DNA of 38,239 nt from a virus. The notes below the pieces were generated by a model. The model was not told where the DNA came from, made no database searches, and worked only from the letters and a program-made list of their open reading frames with translations. A program made the position numbers and the translations under genes. This document shows positions 1 through 38,239 of this stretch, piece by piece. The stretch is taken from the IMG/VR virus record IMGVR_UViG_3300029932_000004; one strand, given 5' to 3'. How positions within the stretch are numbered: position 1 is the first letter of the stretch; every line of letters starts with the position of its first letter.

Positions 1-77
1 GGTGCAACGCTTCGCGCCAATCGCCGCGAGATATTCGAGCTCAGTTTCAGCATCCATCACAAACATCAGACCCATAT
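1..77. repeat. Terminal direct repeat, copy 1 (identical to 38163..38239); circular-closure overlap
   Basis: The first 77 nt (ggtgcaacgcttcgcg...atcagacccatat) recur exactly as the last 77 nt of the window. A minus-strand gene and its Shine-Dalgarno (SD) sequence read straight across the junction. Confidence 0.95.
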
Positions 78-357: not shown

Positions 358-386
358 ATATTACAGTTATCACTCTTATTTGTCAA
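358..386 (-). promoter_or_regulatory. Leftward sigma70-type promoter
   Basis: On the minus strand: -35 TTGACA (revcomp of 381..386), a 17-nt spacer, and -10 TAATAT (revcomp of 358..363). It lies about 45 nt upstream of the 307 start. Confidence 0.7.
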
Positions 387-389
387 TAA

Positions 390-416
390 GAAAATATCGA
401 ATAATAAAATATTTTC
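390..416. promoter_or_regulatory. Operator-like inverted repeat between the divergent promoters
   Basis: GAAAATAT (390..397) and ATATTTTC (409..416) form a perfect 8-bp inverted repeat with an 11-nt AT-rich spacer. It sits exactly between the two -35 boxes. Confidence 0.5.
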
Positions 417-419
417 CAT

Positions 420-448
420 TTGACAGTTTCCCTGTTCCCGTCTATAGT
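420..448 (+). promoter_or_regulatory. Rightward sigma70-type promoter
   Basis: TTGACA (420..425), a 17-nt spacer, and TATAGT (443..448). This is close to consensus. Confidence 0.75.
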
Positions 449-455
449 CTGGCCC

Positions 456-755
456 GTGAACACGCAGAATGAACAAATTGGGGTGACGGAGGCGGCGTTG
501 CTGAAAGGCGTTCGCCGCCAGACCGTCTTGCACTGGATCCGCTCTGGACGACTCCGAGCGGTACGCGTTGGCCGTGCCTGGTCGATTGATCCATATGACC
601 TCGAGATCGTCTACAGGCAACGAACGCGCAACAAAGTCGCCGTAGCAGTGCCGCAGTATCTACAAAATAGATACGAGACGAGCACGCAGGCACACGACAT
701 CGATACACCGGCACAGGTCTCACCCGCAGACCTCGACAGCCTAACGGCTGCATAG
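456..755 (+). CDS. Excisionase/MerR-type helix-turn-helix DNA-binding protein in the Cro position
   Basis: This is ORF-track frame 420..755. The segment IGVTEAALLKGVRRQTVLHWIRSGRLRAVRVGRAWSIDPYDLE matches the HTH_17/excisionase-family pattern. The TTG at 420 is the -35 box itself, so the start is more likely GTG 456 (near-leaderless) or GTG 483. The start is uncertain. Confidence 0.65.
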   Translation: MNTQNEQIGVTEAALLKGVRRQTVLHWIRSGRLRAVRVGRAWSIDPYDLEIVYRQRTRNKVAVAVPQYLQNRYETSTQAHDIDTPAQVSPADLDSLTAA

Positions 756-1075: not shown

Positions 1076-1141
1076 CGGATGATCTTTTGCGTAATAAGTT
1101 TCGTGACAAATCGAGAAGCGATAGCGGTGATCCCGCGACCG
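1076..1141 (+). repeat. Non-coding repeat unit 2 (CGGATGATCTTT ... GATCCCGCGACCG)
   Basis: CGGATGATCTTT lies at 1076..1087 and GATCCCGCGACCG at 1129..1141. The unit is enclosed by GGTCACGG (1071..1078) and CCGTGACC (1139..1146), followed by a T6 run (1149..1154). Confidence 0.6.
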
Positions 1142-1158: not shown

Positions 1159-1186
1159 TTGACAAATAAGGGAAATCGTGAATAAT
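1159..1186 (+). promoter_or_regulatory. sigma70-type promoter upstream of the replication genes
   Basis: TTGACA (1159..1164), a 16-nt spacer, and AATAAT (1181..1186) with TG immediately upstream. The -35 context TTGACAAATAAG is shared with the leftward promoter at 375..386. Confidence 0.6.
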
Positions 1187-1351
1187 AACGATCGTGGTTT
1201 CGGAGTGACGCCCGACGAGACAAGGCCACACATGATAAGCGCAAACAATCACGAGCCTTCAGTGAAGGCGGGTCAGGCAACGGAGACTGTCACTCTCCAC
1301 GCGCTTATCACCTGCCCGTTTTCACTGAGGGCTTTTTCTATTGGAGCACCA

Positions 1352-2206
1352 ATGGCAAATTCACAGATATATGATGAATGGGGATCATTTGCGGCGATTC
1401 CGCACCAGTTCATTGATGCGGCTGGGCAATATTCGGATCATGCGCGGTGGCTATTCGTGCTGCTGCGCCGCTACACCAATGGCGAGAGCGGTAAGGCATT
1501 TCCATCGTATGTTTTGATCGAAGAGCATACCGGGTGGAGTCCTAAGACTATCGCAAAAGCTATTCGAGAACTTGAAGCAGGTGGTTGGATTATTCGAAAA
1601 AAGCAATTCTCCGGCCCAACGATTTACAAGCTGGTCAGACCACAGAACTTCCCAGAGGGAAGTAATGACAGTACTTCCCCTAGGGAAGTATCGTACTTCC
1701 CAGAGGGAAGTAATGCACTTCCCTACGGGAAGTCTAAAAAGACTGATAATAAAAAGACTAATAGTAAAAAGACTGAGTGTGGTGATTCGAGCCGGGCCAT
1801 CCCCGCCAGACCGCACACACCACAGACTGATCAGGATGCTGTATCAATCGCTCTGTCCATCTTCCCGACGTTGGGAATATGGCAGCAGGAGGTGATAGCC
1901 AATGGCGACATCAAGCAATTTCACCTTTGGCGGAAAGCTCTGGAGGACTGGCGAGACAACCGCTACAGTCTCCGGAACATCACCGGGCTGATCGACAGTT
2001 ACTATCGGCTCGAGAAAATGGACAACAGAGACAAGGAGTATCGGAACAATGGAACGAATAGGCCAGTACGCGAATCACACAATGAGCGAGCAATCAGAGA
2101 GACAGTCGAATACATCGGCCGTCTCACCGGAACGCCAATCAGCGATAGCAACACTCATTCAGCAGACACGATCTTTAAGCTCCCTCCCGCTTTCGGTGGG
2201 GAATGA
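1352..2206 (+). CDS. Replication initiator, lambda-O-like (N-terminal winged-helix DNA-binding domain, origin embedded in the gene)
   Basis: This is ORF-track frame 1178..2206. I chose ATG 1352 because GGAG (1343..1346) precedes it. The N-terminus (FAAIPHQFIDA...LFVLLRRYTNGESGKAFPSYVLIEEHTGWSPKTIAKAIRELEAGGWI) looks like the HTH/winged-helix phage replication-protein type. Four iterons and an AT-rich tract lie mid-gene. Confidence 0.7.
   Translation: MANSQIYDEWGSFAAIPHQFIDAAGQYSDHARWLFVLLRRYTNGESGKAFPSYVLIEEHTGWSPKTIAKAIRELEAGGWIIRKKQFSGPTIYKLVRPQNFPEGSNDSTSPREVSYFPEGSNALPYGKSKKTDNKKTNSKKTECGDSSRAIPARPHTPQTDQDAVSIALSIFPTLGIWQQEVIANGDIKQFHLWRKALEDWRDNRYSLRNITGLIDSYYRLEKMDNRDKEYRNNGTNRPVRESHNERAIRETVEYIGRLTGTPISDSNTHSADTIFKLPPAFGGE
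1647..1733. repeat. Origin iterons: four 17-bp dyad-symmetric repeats ACTTCCC-N3-GGGAAGT
   Basis: The copies lie at 1647..1663, 1673..1689, 1695..1711 and 1717..1733. Start-to-start spacing is 26, 22 and 22 bp. Confidence 0.8.
1736..1774. repeat. AT-rich tandem repeat (3 x AAAAAGACT at 15-bp period); candidate DNA-unwinding element
   Basis: AAAAAGACT occurs at 1736, 1751 and 1766, immediately after the iterons. Confidence 0.7.
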
Positions 2207-2207
2207 G

Positions 2208-2654
2208 TTGGCATTTGCCGTGCAGACCTGGACGACGGCTCTCGAGGATATTCCTGATCATATGCTTGGACCCAGCTGGAAGAGGGCAACTAAAGATCAT
2301 GACTGGTCCAAACCATTTCCAGCTCACGCACTGTTGCCAGCATATAAGGCTCTCCTGCTCGAGGATCGGGACAAACGCCAATCACTCGGTGGTCGTCGCC
2401 AGGACGACACGACCCGGTGCCGCTGGTGTGATGATACCGGGTACGTCCCGATCGCAACCTACTGCCCGACGGGTCAGGAGTGGTATTACCCTGTCTATGG
2501 TTGCGAATGCGCGGCCACTCCAATCAATCAGCGGTCGACGGTTCCCGTTCACCCACTCTGGAGCCGAGACGATTACGGGCGTTGGGTTCCGCCGAGTGCC
2601 GATGCCTCGCCCAAGTGCCGCTGCGGGTTCTGCCGCAATAAGGGGTCCTGGTAA
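2208..2654 (+). CDS. Replication-module protein with a Cys-rich C-terminal domain (possible helicase-loader-like N-terminus)
   Basis: This is ORF-track frame 2049..2654. ATG 2049 and ATG 2082 would overlap the initiator gene by more than 120 nt. TTG 2208 follows GGTGGGG (2196..2201) and sits 2 nt after the initiator stop. The C-terminus carries CRWCDDTG, C-x2-YGCEC and CRCGFC. The start is uncertain. Confidence 0.55.
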   Translation: MAFAVQTWTTALEDIPDHMLGPSWKRATKDHDWSKPFPAHALLPAYKALLLEDRDKRQSLGGRRQDDTTRCRWCDDTGYVPIATYCPTGQEWYYPVYGCECAATPINQRSTVPVHPLWSRDDYGRWVPPSADASPKCRCGFCRNKGSW

Positions 2655-3094
2655 TGGCTGCATATCGCTGGAAGTCCAACAGGAAGACGGGCCGTACCAT
2701 CCCATCAGAGCACGCCGAGCAGGTGGCCCTGATGATCTGGGCGGAGATGTCCGAAGGTTCGTACCCGCTTCTCTCGATGCTCTACGCCGTGCCGAATGGT
2801 GGCTACAGGCATCCCTCAGTAGCCGCCAGAATGAAGGCGGAAGGGGTCAAGCCTGGTGTGCCTGACCTCTGCTTACCCGTGGCCCGGTGTGGGCTTCACG
2901 GGCTCTACATCGAGATGAAAGCCAAAGATGGCCGACTCTCCAAACACCAGCAGCGATGGCGCGATCTCCTGATCGCTCAGGGCTACGGGGTGGCCGTGGT
3001 CTATGGTTTCGATGAGGCAAGAACTGTCCTCATCGAGTATCTCAACGATAGATGGAGCCTGACCGAGCATATCAGGCAGGAAGGTCTACAATGA
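2654..3094 (+). CDS. VRR-NUC domain nuclease
   Basis: The motifs SEHAEQVALMIW...AVPNGG...GVKPGVPDL...GLYIEMKAKDGRLSKHQQRW...GYGVAVVYGFDEA follow the VRR-NUC (PD-(D/E)xK) pattern. Confidence 0.8.
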   Translation: MAAYRWKSNRKTGRTIPSEHAEQVALMIWAEMSEGSYPLLSMLYAVPNGGYRHPSVAARMKAEGVKPGVPDLCLPVARCGLHGLYIEMKAKDGRLSKHQQRWRDLLIAQGYGVAVVYGFDEARTVLIEYLNDRWSLTEHIRQEGLQ

Positions 3095-34600: not shown

Positions 34601-34726
34601 CTAGGGTATGCTTGGCGCAAATGCCAAGTAAAAGCCGCTCGCCGTGATCACGATGGCGGCGATGATGTAAAGCGTCGAGCCGCGAAAAATATCAGTTTCC
34701 CTTTTTCCATTGCTCCTCCTTATCAA
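34601..34726 (-). CDS. Micro-ORF encoding a single transmembrane helix (start unresolved)
   Basis: The frame reads ...TLYIIAAIVITASGFYLAFAPSIP and ends at a stop (34603..34601) inside the next gene's SD. The only in-frame start is TTG 34726, which has no SD. A strong SD plus ATG at 34710 lies in the +1-offset frame, upstream of an A5 run. Confidence 0.3.
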   Translation of the reverse strand: MIRRSNGKRETDIFRGSTLYIIAAIVITASGFYLAFAPSIP

Positions 34727-34749
34727 TTTCGTGATGTCACGAAATTGAT
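34722..34749. repeat. 28-bp palindrome ATCAATTTCGTGA-TG-TCACGAAATTGAT
   Basis: The two 13-bp arms are perfectly complementary and the centre is 2 nt. The palindrome lies between two micro-ORFs of the leftward operon. Confidence 0.9.
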
Positions 34750-34823
34750 CATTCGTCACCATCGAGACCAAACGCCATTATCAGGACGACTATCAGGCCA
34801 ATTACGCCAAGTATAAAGCTCAT
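34749..34823 (-). CDS. 24-aa hydrophobic micro-peptide
   Basis: ATG 34823..34821 follows GGGAGGTGGAGA and forms an ATGA overlap with the upstream stop. The product is MSFILGVIGLIVVLIMAFGLDGDE. Confidence 0.5.
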   Translation of the reverse strand: MSFILGVIGLIVVLIMAFGLDGDE

Positions 34824-35119
34824 TCTCCACCTCCCTCAATCTTGTCTAGCAGGGCGTCAATCTCCGGCACGATGGCTTTTGACTCGCATTCGCGGCAAGA
34901 CTTATCAATGTGATTGCGAGTTTTGTAAAGCAGTTCAAGCATTTCAGATGCGGCAATCATCAGGGAAGCGTAATAATTACGCTCTTTGGGAGTGTCGCCG
35001 GGAAGGTGGCAATGACGTGCTGAGCAGCAGCAAATTTCAAGAAAGCGATTGCTATCTGGGTGACTGTCTGAGTAACCTATATCACGTCCTTTTCGAAGCC
35101 CGTCAATGTTCAGTTTCAT
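34820..35119 (-). CDS. Cys/His-rich hypothetical protein
   Basis: The ATG follows GGGAGGTGGAG and forms an ATGA overlap with the upstream gene. The 99-aa product carries EICCCSARHCH and CRECES. Confidence 0.6.
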   Translation of the reverse strand: MKLNIDGLRKGRDIGYSDSHPDSNRFLEICCCSARHCHLPGDTPKERNYYASLMIAASEMLELLYKTRNHIDKSCRECESKAIVPEIDALLDKIEGGGE

Positions 35120-35661
35120 TGCTCCACCTCCCTCTTGTGGTCTGGATGCCGCTGGTAATAGGCATCAACGAATTTGGCGCGTTCCCGGTTCATCTCCTCG
35201 AGGGTACAGGGAGCCTCAGCAAGCGTCTGTGGTCGAGGTTTCGGCCACGTCTCACCACGTCGGACGATAATGTCTTGACAGTGATTGATCAACGTGATGA
35301 TCCGGTTGTGCTCGTCCTGATCTGCTATTGATGCTTCTGTGCCCTGCGGGGCTGGTGCTGGTGATGACTGCTCCTTTGGCCGGGAACAGGCCGAGAGCAT
35401 AAAGATCACGTAACAGAGAGCGATGATCAACAGGTTGGTGATGTTCTGGCGCGGGAATCTATACTTGCCGAGCAGCTGGAAACCAGCCCACAGGCCGGGC
35501 AACCAGACGATGACGTGTGCGACCTCCTTCTGTGTCTGTGAAGTGAATCCGCTGGTCGCGAAGATCCAGGCAGCAACCGCCAGAATACCCGCAATCAGGA
35601 CGGTCGACGCCCATGCTTTATTTGCTTCTCTCCACGCTTCTGCTTTTTCTTGATCGTTCAT
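35116..35661 (-). CDS. Three-pass membrane protein whose third helix ends in a lipobox-like LSAC, followed by a Pro/Ser linker
   Basis: This is ORF-track frame 35116..35748. I moved the start to ATG 35661, which follows AAGGA; the upstream 29 codons are the TATTTCGT repeat array. The transmembrane segments are VLIAGILAVAAWIFA, VIVWLPGLWAGFQLL and LLIIALCYVIFMLSAC. Confidence 0.6.
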   Translation of the reverse strand: MNDQEKAEAWREANKAWASTVLIAGILAVAAWIFATSGFTSQTQKEVAHVIVWLPGLWAGFQLLGKYRFPRQNITNLLIIALCYVIFMLSACSRPKEQSSPAPAPQGTEASIADQDEHNRIITLINHCQDIIVRRGETWPKPRPQTLAEAPCTLEEMNRERAKFVDAYYQRHPDHKREVEQ

Positions 35662-35670
35662 TGTGATGTC

Positions 35671-35720
35671 CTTTCGTTTATTTCGTTTATTTCGTGTTCT
35701 ATTTCGTGTTTTATTTCTTG
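35671..35720. repeat. Tandem TATTTCGT(G) repeat array
   Basis: Exact TATTTCGT copies start at 35679, 35688 and 35700. Degenerate copies lie at 35671..35677 and 35712..35719. The array fills the intergenic space between two leftward genes. Confidence 0.85.
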
Positions 35721-36280
35721 TATGGATGCCAGGGATTGCAGTCGGCATTGGTGCGACTCTCGACTACCTGGCGCAACCAATGGCGCATTGATGATCTGGT
35801 CTGGAGGTTGCCGCTCCACAAGAATTGCCTGACCGCCTCGTGAAGGGTGATATCAGGCACGTCTCCGACTTTGGCATCTGGGAAATAGGCCAAGATCTTG
35901 AGCCGCTTGCTCTCGTCCAGTTTGAACCGGACATAGATCGAATATTGGACAGCCGCGACCACAGCCTGTGCCTGTCGATCCGGATTGCCTGACGGCCACT
36001 CGGATCGAACAAACTCGATTGCTGGCCACGCCTGAGGCCATCCGTAGGTGGTATGGTGGATGAACACCAAGCGGCCAGCCGGGTCGGACTTCATCAGCGT
36101 CTCTGGGTGATAGAGACAGATCGACGAGTCAGGATCCGGCTTCGTTGGGTCCAGCCTGATCACGTCGACGCCAAGCGGCGTCTGTGACTGGCCGATGATC
36201 CCACACGCCACGAGAGCCATTCCAATCCATAGAGCGGCCAGAATCAGCCGTCCCGTCTCTGCTCTGTTCAATGTGTGCAT
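35711..36280 (-). CDS. Lipoprotein, function unknown
   Basis: The N-terminus MHTLNRAETGRLILAALWIGMALVAC has a canonical L-V-A-C lipobox. The mature part of about 160 aa has no motif I recognise. Confidence 0.65.
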   Translation of the reverse strand: MHTLNRAETGRLILAALWIGMALVACGIIGQSQTPLGVDVIRLDPTKPDPDSSICLYHPETLMKSDPAGRLVFIHHTTYGWPQAWPAIEFVRSEWPSGNPDRQAQAVVAAVQYSIYVRFKLDESKRLKILAYFPDAKVGDVPDITLHEAVRQFLWSGNLQTRSSMRHWLRQVVESRTNADCNPWHPYKK

Positions 36281-38094: not shown

Positions 38095-38237
38095 TTTGAC
38101 TCCTCTTCTGTCTGGCAATCCCAGCAGATTGGATCGTCGTCCAGGTGCAACTCATTGCACTGGGTGCAACGCTTCGCGCCAATCGCCGCGAGATATTCGA
38201 GCTCAGTTTCAGCATCCATCACAAACATCAGACCCAT
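38091..38237 (-). CDS. Small zinc-ribbon protein (48 aa) spanning the circular junction
   Basis: The ATG at 38237..38235 is equivalent to 75..73. Its SD, AGGAGGTGAT, lies at 78..87 on the other side of the junction. The product is MGLMFVMDAETELEYLAAIGAKRCTQCNELHLDDDPICWDCQTEEESK. The stop forms an ATGA overlap with the next gene. Confidence 0.6.
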   Translation of the reverse strand: MGLMFVMDAETELEYLAAIGAKRCTQCNELHLDDDPICWDCQTEEESK

Positions 38238-38239
38238 AT
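38163..38239. repeat. Terminal direct repeat, copy 2 (identical to 1..77)
   Basis: These 77 nt are an exact copy of the window start. Confidence 0.95.

Follow-up and report, generated by a model that had tools for sequence, protein, structure and literature searches.

A perfect palindrome in the leftward operon of a phage genome as a copy of a dispersed element common to dinD genes

The palindrome and its place in the leftward operon

The DNA examined here is the IMG/VR virus record IMGVR_UViG_3300029932_000004, a stretch of 38,239 nucleotides that we refer to as the window. Its leftward operon contains a perfect 28-bp palindrome, ATCAATTTCGTGA-TG-TCACGAAATTGAT, at 34722..34749, with 13-nt arms that are 100% complementary and a 2-nt center, exactly as the first-pass annotation had described it. 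Judging from sequence comparisons, this palindrome is one member of a dispersed, sequence-conserved element that is common to dinD genes, and it is unrelated to the tandem repeats found nearby in the same operon. The features of the locus are given below; L137, L138, L139, L140, and L144 designate relatives of the phage, which were located in IMG/VR contigs via homologues of the 189-aa protein encoded in the operon. A search of IMG/VR with the 181-aa protein returned no relatives.

35663..35710, minus strand: 48-nt spacer between the genes for the 189-aa and 181-aa proteins; a variable-number tandem repeat that differs between the window and L137 on one side and L138 and L139 on the other
35116..35661, minus strand: gene for a predicted membrane protein of 181 aa, which follows the repeat spacer and is absent from the more distant relatives L140 and L144
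34749..34823, minus strand: 24-codon open reading frame (ORF), whose product would be a hydrophobic peptide (MSFILGVIGLIVVLIMAFGLDGDE) and whose TGA stop codon (34749..34751) overlaps the first base of the palindrome
34722..34749, no strand: 28-bp perfect palindrome of the Q type, belonging to the dispersed element AYCAWTTTCGTGA-NN-TCACGAAAWTGRT, with matches in IMG/VR and GTDB
34708..34721, minus strand: Shine-Dalgarno sequence AAGGAGG at 34715..34721, immediately 3' of the hairpin, followed by ATG at 34708..34710 in the arrangement AAGGAGG-N4-ATG
34683..34748, minus strand: 66-nt module comprising the palindrome, AAGGAGG, and ATG plus 9 codons; common to L139, missing from L138
34601..34687, minus strand: 5'-truncated remnant of a 99-aa membrane-protein gene (last 28 codons plus stop); the gene is intact in L140 and L144
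34346..34591, minus strand: gene for a basic protein of 81 aa that has Cys-X2-Cys pairs and looks zinc-ribbon-like by eye; the operon ends with this gene

In this later part of the operon, the order is thus the genes for the 189-aa, 181-aa, and 99-aa proteins, the 24-codon ORF, the palindrome, and the gene for the 81-aa zinc-ribbon-like protein. No other perfect palindrome as large as this one was present in the window, in which it is single copy; by arithmetic, about 0.003 palindromes with 13+13 nt would be expected by chance in 38 kb. On the sense strand, the site reads GAT-CAATTTCGTGA-CA-TCACGAAATTG-ATA, and it fits CAWTTTCGTGA-NN-TCACGAAAWTG together with the AY...RT flanks of the element described below. 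When a DNA profile of dinD was run against the window with nhmmer, the palindrome was the sole match (E = 2e-6).

The palindrome had been thought unable to give a stable RNA hairpin because of its 2-nt center. This was wrong, as folding predicted a 12-bp stem with a 4-nt ACAU loop, and the 91-nt context had a predicted energy of -22.8 kcal/mol (z = -3.15). A scan for promoter and terminator consensus sequences found nothing promoter-like or terminator-like at the palindrome. The single promoter-like match (9/12) overlay the beginning of the 24-codon ORF, at a distance of about 60 nt upstream on the sense strand; one match of this kind is no more than shuffled sequences give. The GC-rich hairpin followed by a U tract that defines an intrinsic terminator was also lacking, since a T run follows the palindrome on neither strand. 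With 12 to 13 bp, the modeled stem would fall short of the roughly 20 bp or more of double-stranded RNA that make an RNase III site.

We then compared the locus in the relatives. L137 was identical to the window in the palindrome region. L139 (about 90 to 94% identity) had the 24-codon ORF, followed by the 66 nt of the window (34748 down to 34683), after which the two diverged. L138, of the same family, had the same stop codon, then 6 nt, and then the zinc-ribbon gene; the module was absent, and the homology between the window and L138 broke exactly at the edge of the palindrome. L140 and L144 (about 50% protein identity) had neither the 181-aa gene nor the module. The presence of the module in L139 and its absence from L138 therefore mark a mosaic joint of the early-left operon, and on this comparison the palindrome came in with the 66-nt module at that joint. 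The center dinucleotide was inverted between the window (CA) and L139 (TG). The non-palindromic part of the module gave 0 matches in IMG/VR.

The surroundings of the module differed in how well they were kept. The 24-codon ORF was retained in L138 and L139, with changes that were mostly silent or conservative. On the other side, the ATG at 34708..34710 opened a frame of only 20 codons, whose tail differed between the window and L139, so that this frame is probably vestigial. Because 34601..34687 is a remnant of the 99-aa gene, a 56-codon frame starting with TTG there is probably no gene. A comparison of dinD with the palindrome frame by tblastn gave 50% identity over 36 residues (E = 0.015), which raised the possibility of a dinD pseudogene. 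This idea was weakened, as the distal part of the tblastn match is the remnant of another gene and the flanks add only about 3.5 bits to the nhmmer match.

Copies of the element in dinD genes and in unrelated genomes

The consensus of the element was (G/T)AY-CAWTTTCGTGA-NN-TCACGAAAWTG-RT, 28 to 30 bp in length. The Q-Q form, AATTTCGTGANNTCACGAAATT, was found in 33 IMG/VR contigs and in 23 GTDB species genomes, including Clostridia, Lentisphaerota, Verrucomicrobiota, Bacteroidota, Desulfobacterota, Cloacimonadota, and one Wolfebacteria. The H-H form, CATTTTCGTGANNTCACGAAAATG, was found in at least 99 IMG/VR contigs; for the mixed form, CATTTT...AAATTG, the count was at least 119. All forms together were present in at least 250 unrelated IMG/VR phage contigs. 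By arithmetic from the sizes of the collections, less than one match to 20 to 22 specified bases is expected, and a reversed control pattern, also palindromic and of the same composition, had 0 matches in IMG/VR. The first 33 IMG/VR loci were compared with the window, and none was similar to it in DNA. In 10 of 10 genomes checked (5 phage contigs and 5 metagenome-assembled genomes [MAGs]), there was one copy per genome. These pattern searches detect perfect cores only, which biases statements on the conservation of free-standing copies.

About 10 of the 23 GTDB genome matches lay within genes of NCBIfam NF008573 (DNA damage-inducible protein D), a family with a Bro-N domain, and the peptide encoded by the palindrome in these genes was D-Q-F-R-E-V-T-K-L-I. 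Overall, the dinD motif peptide was D-H/Q-F-R-x-x-T-K-M/L-V/I, in the part coding for Bro-N. We picked 80 GTDB dinD loci, among the matches listed, by peptide patterns outside the motif, and 75 full genes were analyzed. The DNA of the motif in these genes was GAY CAT TTT CGT GAG GTC ACG AAA ATG RTN, with 12 to 15 of 15 positions paired. The codons CAT, TTT, ACG, and AAA were used in 100% of the genes (entropy 0) and CGT in 97% (0.18 bit). Elsewhere in dinD, the codon entropy at conserved columns was 1.66 to 2.41 bit for Arg, 1.72 to 2.0 bit for Thr, 0.86 to 1.0 bit for Lys, 0.40 to 0.92 bit for Phe, and 0.93 bit for His, none being as low as the 0 to 0.18 bit of the motif. The third base of Asp (C/T) and the first base of Val/Ile (G/A) underwent about 21 joint changes on a tree built without the motif; they were paired in 74 of the 75 genes, and the exception was a T/G combination. 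Since required pairing locks each synonymous site to a non-synonymous partner, the frozen codons prove selection on a dyad or hairpin but are not in themselves proof of sequence-specific recognition. Imperfect dinD copies, in which an asymmetry of G-U wobble would bear on RNA versus DNA, were few and, in our reading, balanced between strands.

Divergent homologues of dinD also had a palindrome at this place, but one that differed in sequence and in the peptide encoded. In Escherichia coli K-12 MG1655 (L149), dinD (NC_000913.3, 3817760..3818584) had a 30-nt near-palindrome, GACCATTTCGAGGAGATCCTCGATATGGTC, with 13 of 15 pairs at the homologous position and the peptide DHFEEILDMV; a DNA-similarity search for the E. 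coli gene had given no match, and the gene was taken by its coordinates. The antirepressor of mycobacteriophage phiGD57-1 had the palindrome CAATTTCCCGGCGCCGGGAAATTG at the same place, with the peptide QFPGAGKL, and a homologue from a Streptococcus satellite prophage had TTGTTGACGTCAACAA there. One dinD gene (L043) was truncated right after the palindrome. As a separate observation, the DinD proteins of Lentisphaerota, Bacillota, Bacteroidota, Pseudomonadota, Planctomycetota, Synergistota, and Spirochaetota (L057..L136) were 64 to 78% identical to one query, an unusually high identity across phyla that suggests frequent horizontal transfer of dinD.

Most copies of the element were free-standing, outside dinD. 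Among the matches listed, there was no dinD similarity around 130 of 153 copies, or around 118 of 119 copies of the mixed type, and a dinD gene was found near a free copy in only 2 of 134 loci. Free copies were found in varied contexts. Some immediately followed intrinsic terminators, and others immediately preceded a Shine-Dalgarno sequence and ATG; the tip of a terminator hairpin was formed by the palindrome itself in L156 and L218. About one-third of the free copies abutted an ORF of 50 codons or more at its stop codon, with the TGA often overlapping the conserved GAY flank, as in the window. Judged by eye from their C-terminal sequences, the genes upstream were mutually unrelated (methylase-like, dCTP-deaminase-like, and others); a dCTP-deaminase-like gene was also seen in a tblastn match. 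Degenerate copies matched in six Porphyromonas gingivalis prophage genomes. In the two that were inspected, two early genes were separated by a gap of 22 nt that the degenerate copy filled, and the two prophages ceased to be homologous at its edge; the annotated start codon of the next gene overlapped the end of the copy, at the positions that read ATG in the consensus. In-frame copies also occurred inside unrelated ORFs, including a Dam-type methylase and other unannotated ORFs. At the site in the methylase there was a 6-residue gap relative to one structural homologue and no gap relative to another, so these alignments argue weakly that the in-frame copies were inserted rather than of local origin.

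The flanks and centers of the free copies were also examined. In 81 dereplicated copies (162 half-sites), position -2 was A in 148 (91%) and position -1 was Y in 144 (89%). Positions -1 and +1 were not complementary, the commonest combinations being C/A and T/G. As in dinD (GAGGTC), GG or CC formed the center of 58 of the 105 dereplicated free copies (55%) and of about 70% of the non-dereplicated H-H copies among the matches listed. An apparent covariation between the H and Q forms (CAT..ATG versus CAA..TTG) was not real, since mixed types were equally common. In a Cloacimonadota MAG (L053, position 3023), the stop codon of a full-length dinD was immediately followed by a second palindrome, free-standing and of the Q type.

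An unbiased sample of one family of capsid genes was also examined. Almost all members of the closest group (about 85 to 100% identity) carried a pair of palindromes between the genes for scaffold and capsid, and most relatives with less than about 88% identity lacked it; the boundary was not sharp, as the pair was also missing from two sequences of 81 to 88% identity. Within the subclade, the dinD-type palindrome was invariant except for flips of the center and one mismatch in one outlier. The partner palindrome varied by compensated substitutions (GTTGAC/GTCAAC, GGTGAC/GTCACC). In L016 and L198, the element stood in a tandem arrangement with further 24-nt palindromes that follow the same codon-phased plan. 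Such tandem palindromes, in gut-phage contigs (L016 at 2650..2760, and upstream of the capsid gene in L198 and L371), have the design CAT/CAA ... GAC|GTC ... ATG/TTG, for example, CATCTCGGTGACGTCACCGAGATG and CATTTTGTTGACATTAACAAAATG, and their arms differ between relatives by compensated substitutions.

Explanations for the palindrome and for the repeats

We tentatively favor, at somewhat less than even confidence, the interpretation of the element as a mini-element that forms hairpins, is prone to recombination, and punctuates cistrons, and not as an operator. If transcribed, the palindrome of the window would give a 12-bp hairpin extending from the stop codon of the 24-codon ORF to the next ribosome-binding site. 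Such a hairpin could serve as intercistronic punctuation, as a barrier to 3'-5' mRNA decay and/or as a modulator of downstream translation. We ranked this interpretation first because palindromy outlasts the turnover of sequence in dinD homologues and in the partner hairpins, because copies are found at cistron boundaries and can be the tips of terminators, and because copies come and go among closely related phages, where homology breaks at the edges of the copies and the centers are flipped.

Several points weigh against it. A purely structural role leaves the recurrence of one specific sequence unexplained, and structure alone does not account for the conservation of the unpaired positions -2 and -1. 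Mixed half-sites, which contain a mismatch, were as common as symmetric ones among the matches listed. One copy per genome differs from known mobile palindromes, and no enzyme able to move the element was found, although an association with transposases was not specifically searched. The orientation of the genes flanking the copies, which would separate an operator from a 3'-end element, showed no significant bias in crude gene calls (convergent in 11 cases versus divergent in 6; p = 0.33). Finally, the frame after the Shine-Dalgarno sequence is vestigial in the window, and translational coupling may have no target there.

Some of these points would fit a dyad DNA site for a sequence-specific dimeric protein, perhaps a member of the DinD/Bro-N family or a partner of it; the dinD copy would then be autoregulatory, and the phage copies would plug into the regulator. 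We consider this possible but rather doubtful. In the free-standing copies, the sequence itself is conserved beyond pairing. The 13-nt half-site holds A at -2 and Y at -1, which are non-complementary between the arms, and the W position varies independently in each arm, with mixed types at least as frequent as symmetric ones among the matches listed. The site is single copy per genome, dinD and its site always travel together, and the Bro-N domain, which holds the motif, is described as binding nucleic acids. To this extent the dimeric site proposed by the first-pass annotation may still hold, on the strength of half-site positions conserved without pairing; however, no binder was identified. 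No Bro-N or DinD gene was found in the window, and no Bro-N protein was found in any of 5 phage contigs with a free copy, one of which is a complete genome. Likewise, dinD was not found in 4 of 5 host MAGs with a free copy, and there was one partial match in the fifth, although MAGs, like viral contigs, may be incomplete. Flanks without a dinD-type gene were the rule (132 of 134 free-copy loci), and no promoter adjoins the site in the window. Moreover, divergent dinD homologues change the sequence but keep palindromy, for which structure is the simpler explanation.

The palindrome in the window could also be a neutral relic, that is, a scar of the illegitimate or short-homology recombination that imported the 66-nt module, its perfection being due to youth or to correction by template switching at a quasi-palindrome. 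The module is absent from L138, L140, and L144, and it adjoins both a truncated gene remnant and the vestigial 20-codon frame. In three cases (L138 versus L139, the P. gingivalis phages, and the truncated dinD of L043), homology breaks at the edges of the palindrome, and the center dinucleotide flips. Nevertheless, we regard this explanation as unlikely, since at least 250 exact copies in unrelated phages, versus 0 for the control, argue for selection or active spread, and since the element was kept across a whole subclade of the capsid family beside a partner hairpin with a compensated change. The hairpin mini-element and these two explanations are compatible with each other at the level of the family.

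The first-pass annotation had further linked the palindrome to the direct repeats, as an operator or iteron set, a second origin, or a packaging (pac/cos) site bound by one phage protein. The exact copies of TATTTCGT starting at 35679, 35688, and 35700 were confirmed, and so was the 8-mer TTTCGTGA at 1099..1106. Tandem Repeats Finder reported 35672..35695 (period 9, 2.7 copies, 100% matches) and 35688..35721 (period 12, 2.8 copies, 90% matches). The shared core, ATTTCGTG, occurred 6 times in the window versus 1.68 expected, and 2 of 100 shuffles reached 6. The palindrome and the tandem array were each counted twice, however, so that there were only 4 independent loci, for which the Poisson probability is about 0.09 (arithmetic). 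Similarly, TTTCGTGA occurred 3 times versus 1.49 expected (17 of 100 shuffles reached 3), and the 13-nt half-site with up to 2 mismatches occurred 8 times versus 3.7 expected, no further copy being closer than 2 mismatches. For independent loci, the sharing of the core was therefore within chance.

The relatives also spoke against a connection between the two sites. On the sense strand, the spacer at 35663..35710 consists of ACACGAAATAG/AACGAAATA repeats followed by the ribosome-binding site AAAGGA at its end, whereas the spacer of L138 and L139 is AAATAAAACACGAAATAAACGAAAGGA. The spacer of the window and L137 is longer by 21 nt, with one additional 12-mer and one additional 9-mer. L138 keeps the repeat spacer and lacks the palindrome, so that the two sites are uncoupled, which refutes the idea that the direct repeats are iterons for a protein that binds the palindrome. 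From these alignments, the TATTTCGT repeats are a slippage-generated variable-number tandem repeat in the A-rich leader of the 181-aa gene, unrelated to the palindrome. The common core was the point in favor of one protein for both sites. An operator or iteron set would comprise conserved sites that share a core and are placed at a promoter or an origin; here, the repeat number differs among relatives of 90% identity, L138, L140, and L144 have no palindrome, hundreds of palindrome-bearing phages lack these repeats, nothing promoter-like lies at the single-copy palindrome, and likely origin iterons are found elsewhere, at 1642..1733. An operator set, a second origin, or a pac/cos site is thus unsupported and in our judgment highly improbable.

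Equally improbable, and rejected as a general explanation, is that the palindrome is the core of a phage attachment site (attP) for integration into the palindrome of a host dinD: it is identical to the host-gene sequence including the asymmetric center, it is single copy, its 11-6-11 or 13-2-13 architecture resembles recombinase core sites in our reading, the dinD of L043 is cut off right after it, and the free copy of L168 is 145 nt from a tyrosine integrase, but integrases are rare near free copies (most adjoin dinD-embedded copies, and one free copy has an integrase within 0.2 kb, by weak detection with regular expressions), free-copy genomes have one copy and not the two of a duplicated core, the copies lie inside structural or early operons and not at prophage ends, and no integrase was found in the annotated parts of the window.

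Known systems, the rest of the genome, and significance

Repetitive extragenic palindromic (REP) sequences and bacterial interspersed mosaic elements (BIMEs) are 20- to 40-bp palindromes downstream of stop codons or near terminators, sometimes clustered with hairpins, for which roles in mRNA stabilization and termination have been proposed (Di Nocera et al. 2013, PMC3733652). The dinD-type element resembles them in size, in its position after stops or near terminators, and in its clustering with other hairpins. REPs, however, are multicopy per genome and lineage specific, with GTAG or CGTC tags and RAYT transposases, whereas the dinD-type element was single copy in the genomes checked, crosses phyla and phage types, has no GTAG or CGTC tag in its consensus, and sits in a conserved protein-coding gene. 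Like Rickettsia palindromic elements, the dinD-type element has a length that is a multiple of three, leaves two of three frames open on both strands, and is read in frame in unrelated ORFs. The Rickettsia elements are in-frame hairpin repeats of 100 to 150 bp, multicopy and restricted to the genus; the dinD-type element has 24 to 30 bp and one copy per genome.

Intercistronic hairpins, which act in translational coupling by unfolding or as 3' stabilizers, are normally conserved in structure only and specific to one operon. The element resembles them in its place after a stop codon and before the following ribosome-binding site or ATG and in its stable predicted stem, but differs in that the identical sequence recurs in unrelated genomes. 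In the modular theory of phage evolution, Susskind and Botstein reportedly proposed short conserved linker or boundary sequences as recombination joints. Known boundary sequences of phages, for example, those of lambdoid phages, are family specific and not palindromic. The dinD-type element is like them in being found at breakpoints of homology and with modules that are present or absent, and recombination might start at the site. A covariance search of Rfam 15 with two dinD loci and one phage locus (E <= 1) gave no relevant match, and no paper with the sequence of the element was found in the literature covered, which is weak evidence of novelty since many journals lie outside that coverage. 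The element is apparently undescribed.

As for the remainder of the genome, the first 77 nt of the window (1..77) recur at 38163..38239. This terminal overlap indicates that the window represents a complete phage genome, 38,162 bp long, which is either a closed circle or circularly permuted. No DNA similarity to the window was found among cultured phages. The rightward genes encode an HTH_17 protein, an HTH_36 replication initiator, a VRR-NUC nuclease, a helicase, a dCTP deaminase, an HNH endonuclease, a GH19 endolysin, a terminase, and a portal protein. The leftward operon spans 38239 down to 34346 and has in its early part small zinc-ribbon-like ORFs, one of them with a weak, sub-threshold double-zinc-ribbon match, followed by genes for a 250-aa protein and a Gp157/Gam-like protein. 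The 81-aa protein at its end had no family match in a profile search, and DNA homologous to its gene occurs in L143 and L144.

Within the HTH_36 replication-initiator ORF (1178..2206), 1642..1776 contains two arrays: ACTTCCC-NNN-GGGAAGT palindromic units (periods 22 and 26, about 3 to 4 copies) and then 2.8 copies of the 15-mer TAAAAAGACTGATAA. These arrays are likely the phage origin. A 17-nt inverted repeat, TGTCAATAAGAAAATAT / ATATTTTCCATTTGACA, lies at 381..425, at the start of the HTH_17 gene (420..755), and is a candidate operator or promoter region of an early switch. No integrase was found among the window ORFs scanned. In L140 and L141 (5443..6869), genes for a thymidylate kinase and a tyrosine integrase are located downstream of the same early-left genes, and given this integrase, lifestyle may differ within this phage family.

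For this phage, the results point to an inserted hairpin module at a mosaic joint, beside a slippage repeat, and not to an operator or iteron system. For dinD, an SOS gene, the lack of synonymous variation in the embedded palindrome across phyla indicates a nucleic-acid signal that constrains the protein sequence of the gene itself, and its homologues alter the peptide (FRDVTK, FEEILD, FPGAGK) in ways that preserve the palindrome. The version of the palindrome in E. coli dinD offers a direct experimental handle. The occurrence of the same 24 to 30 nt, single in each genome checked, in hundreds of unrelated phage contigs points to a new reader or a new mechanism of spreading. More speculatively, and with considerable doubt on our part, the 28- to 30-bp palindrome might be a universal, enzyme-less "linker" that spreads and reshuffles genes through hairpin-provoked breakage and short-homology recombination at the shared site. 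If so, it would combine the roles of a minimal mobile element and of a hotspot for mosaicism in phages.

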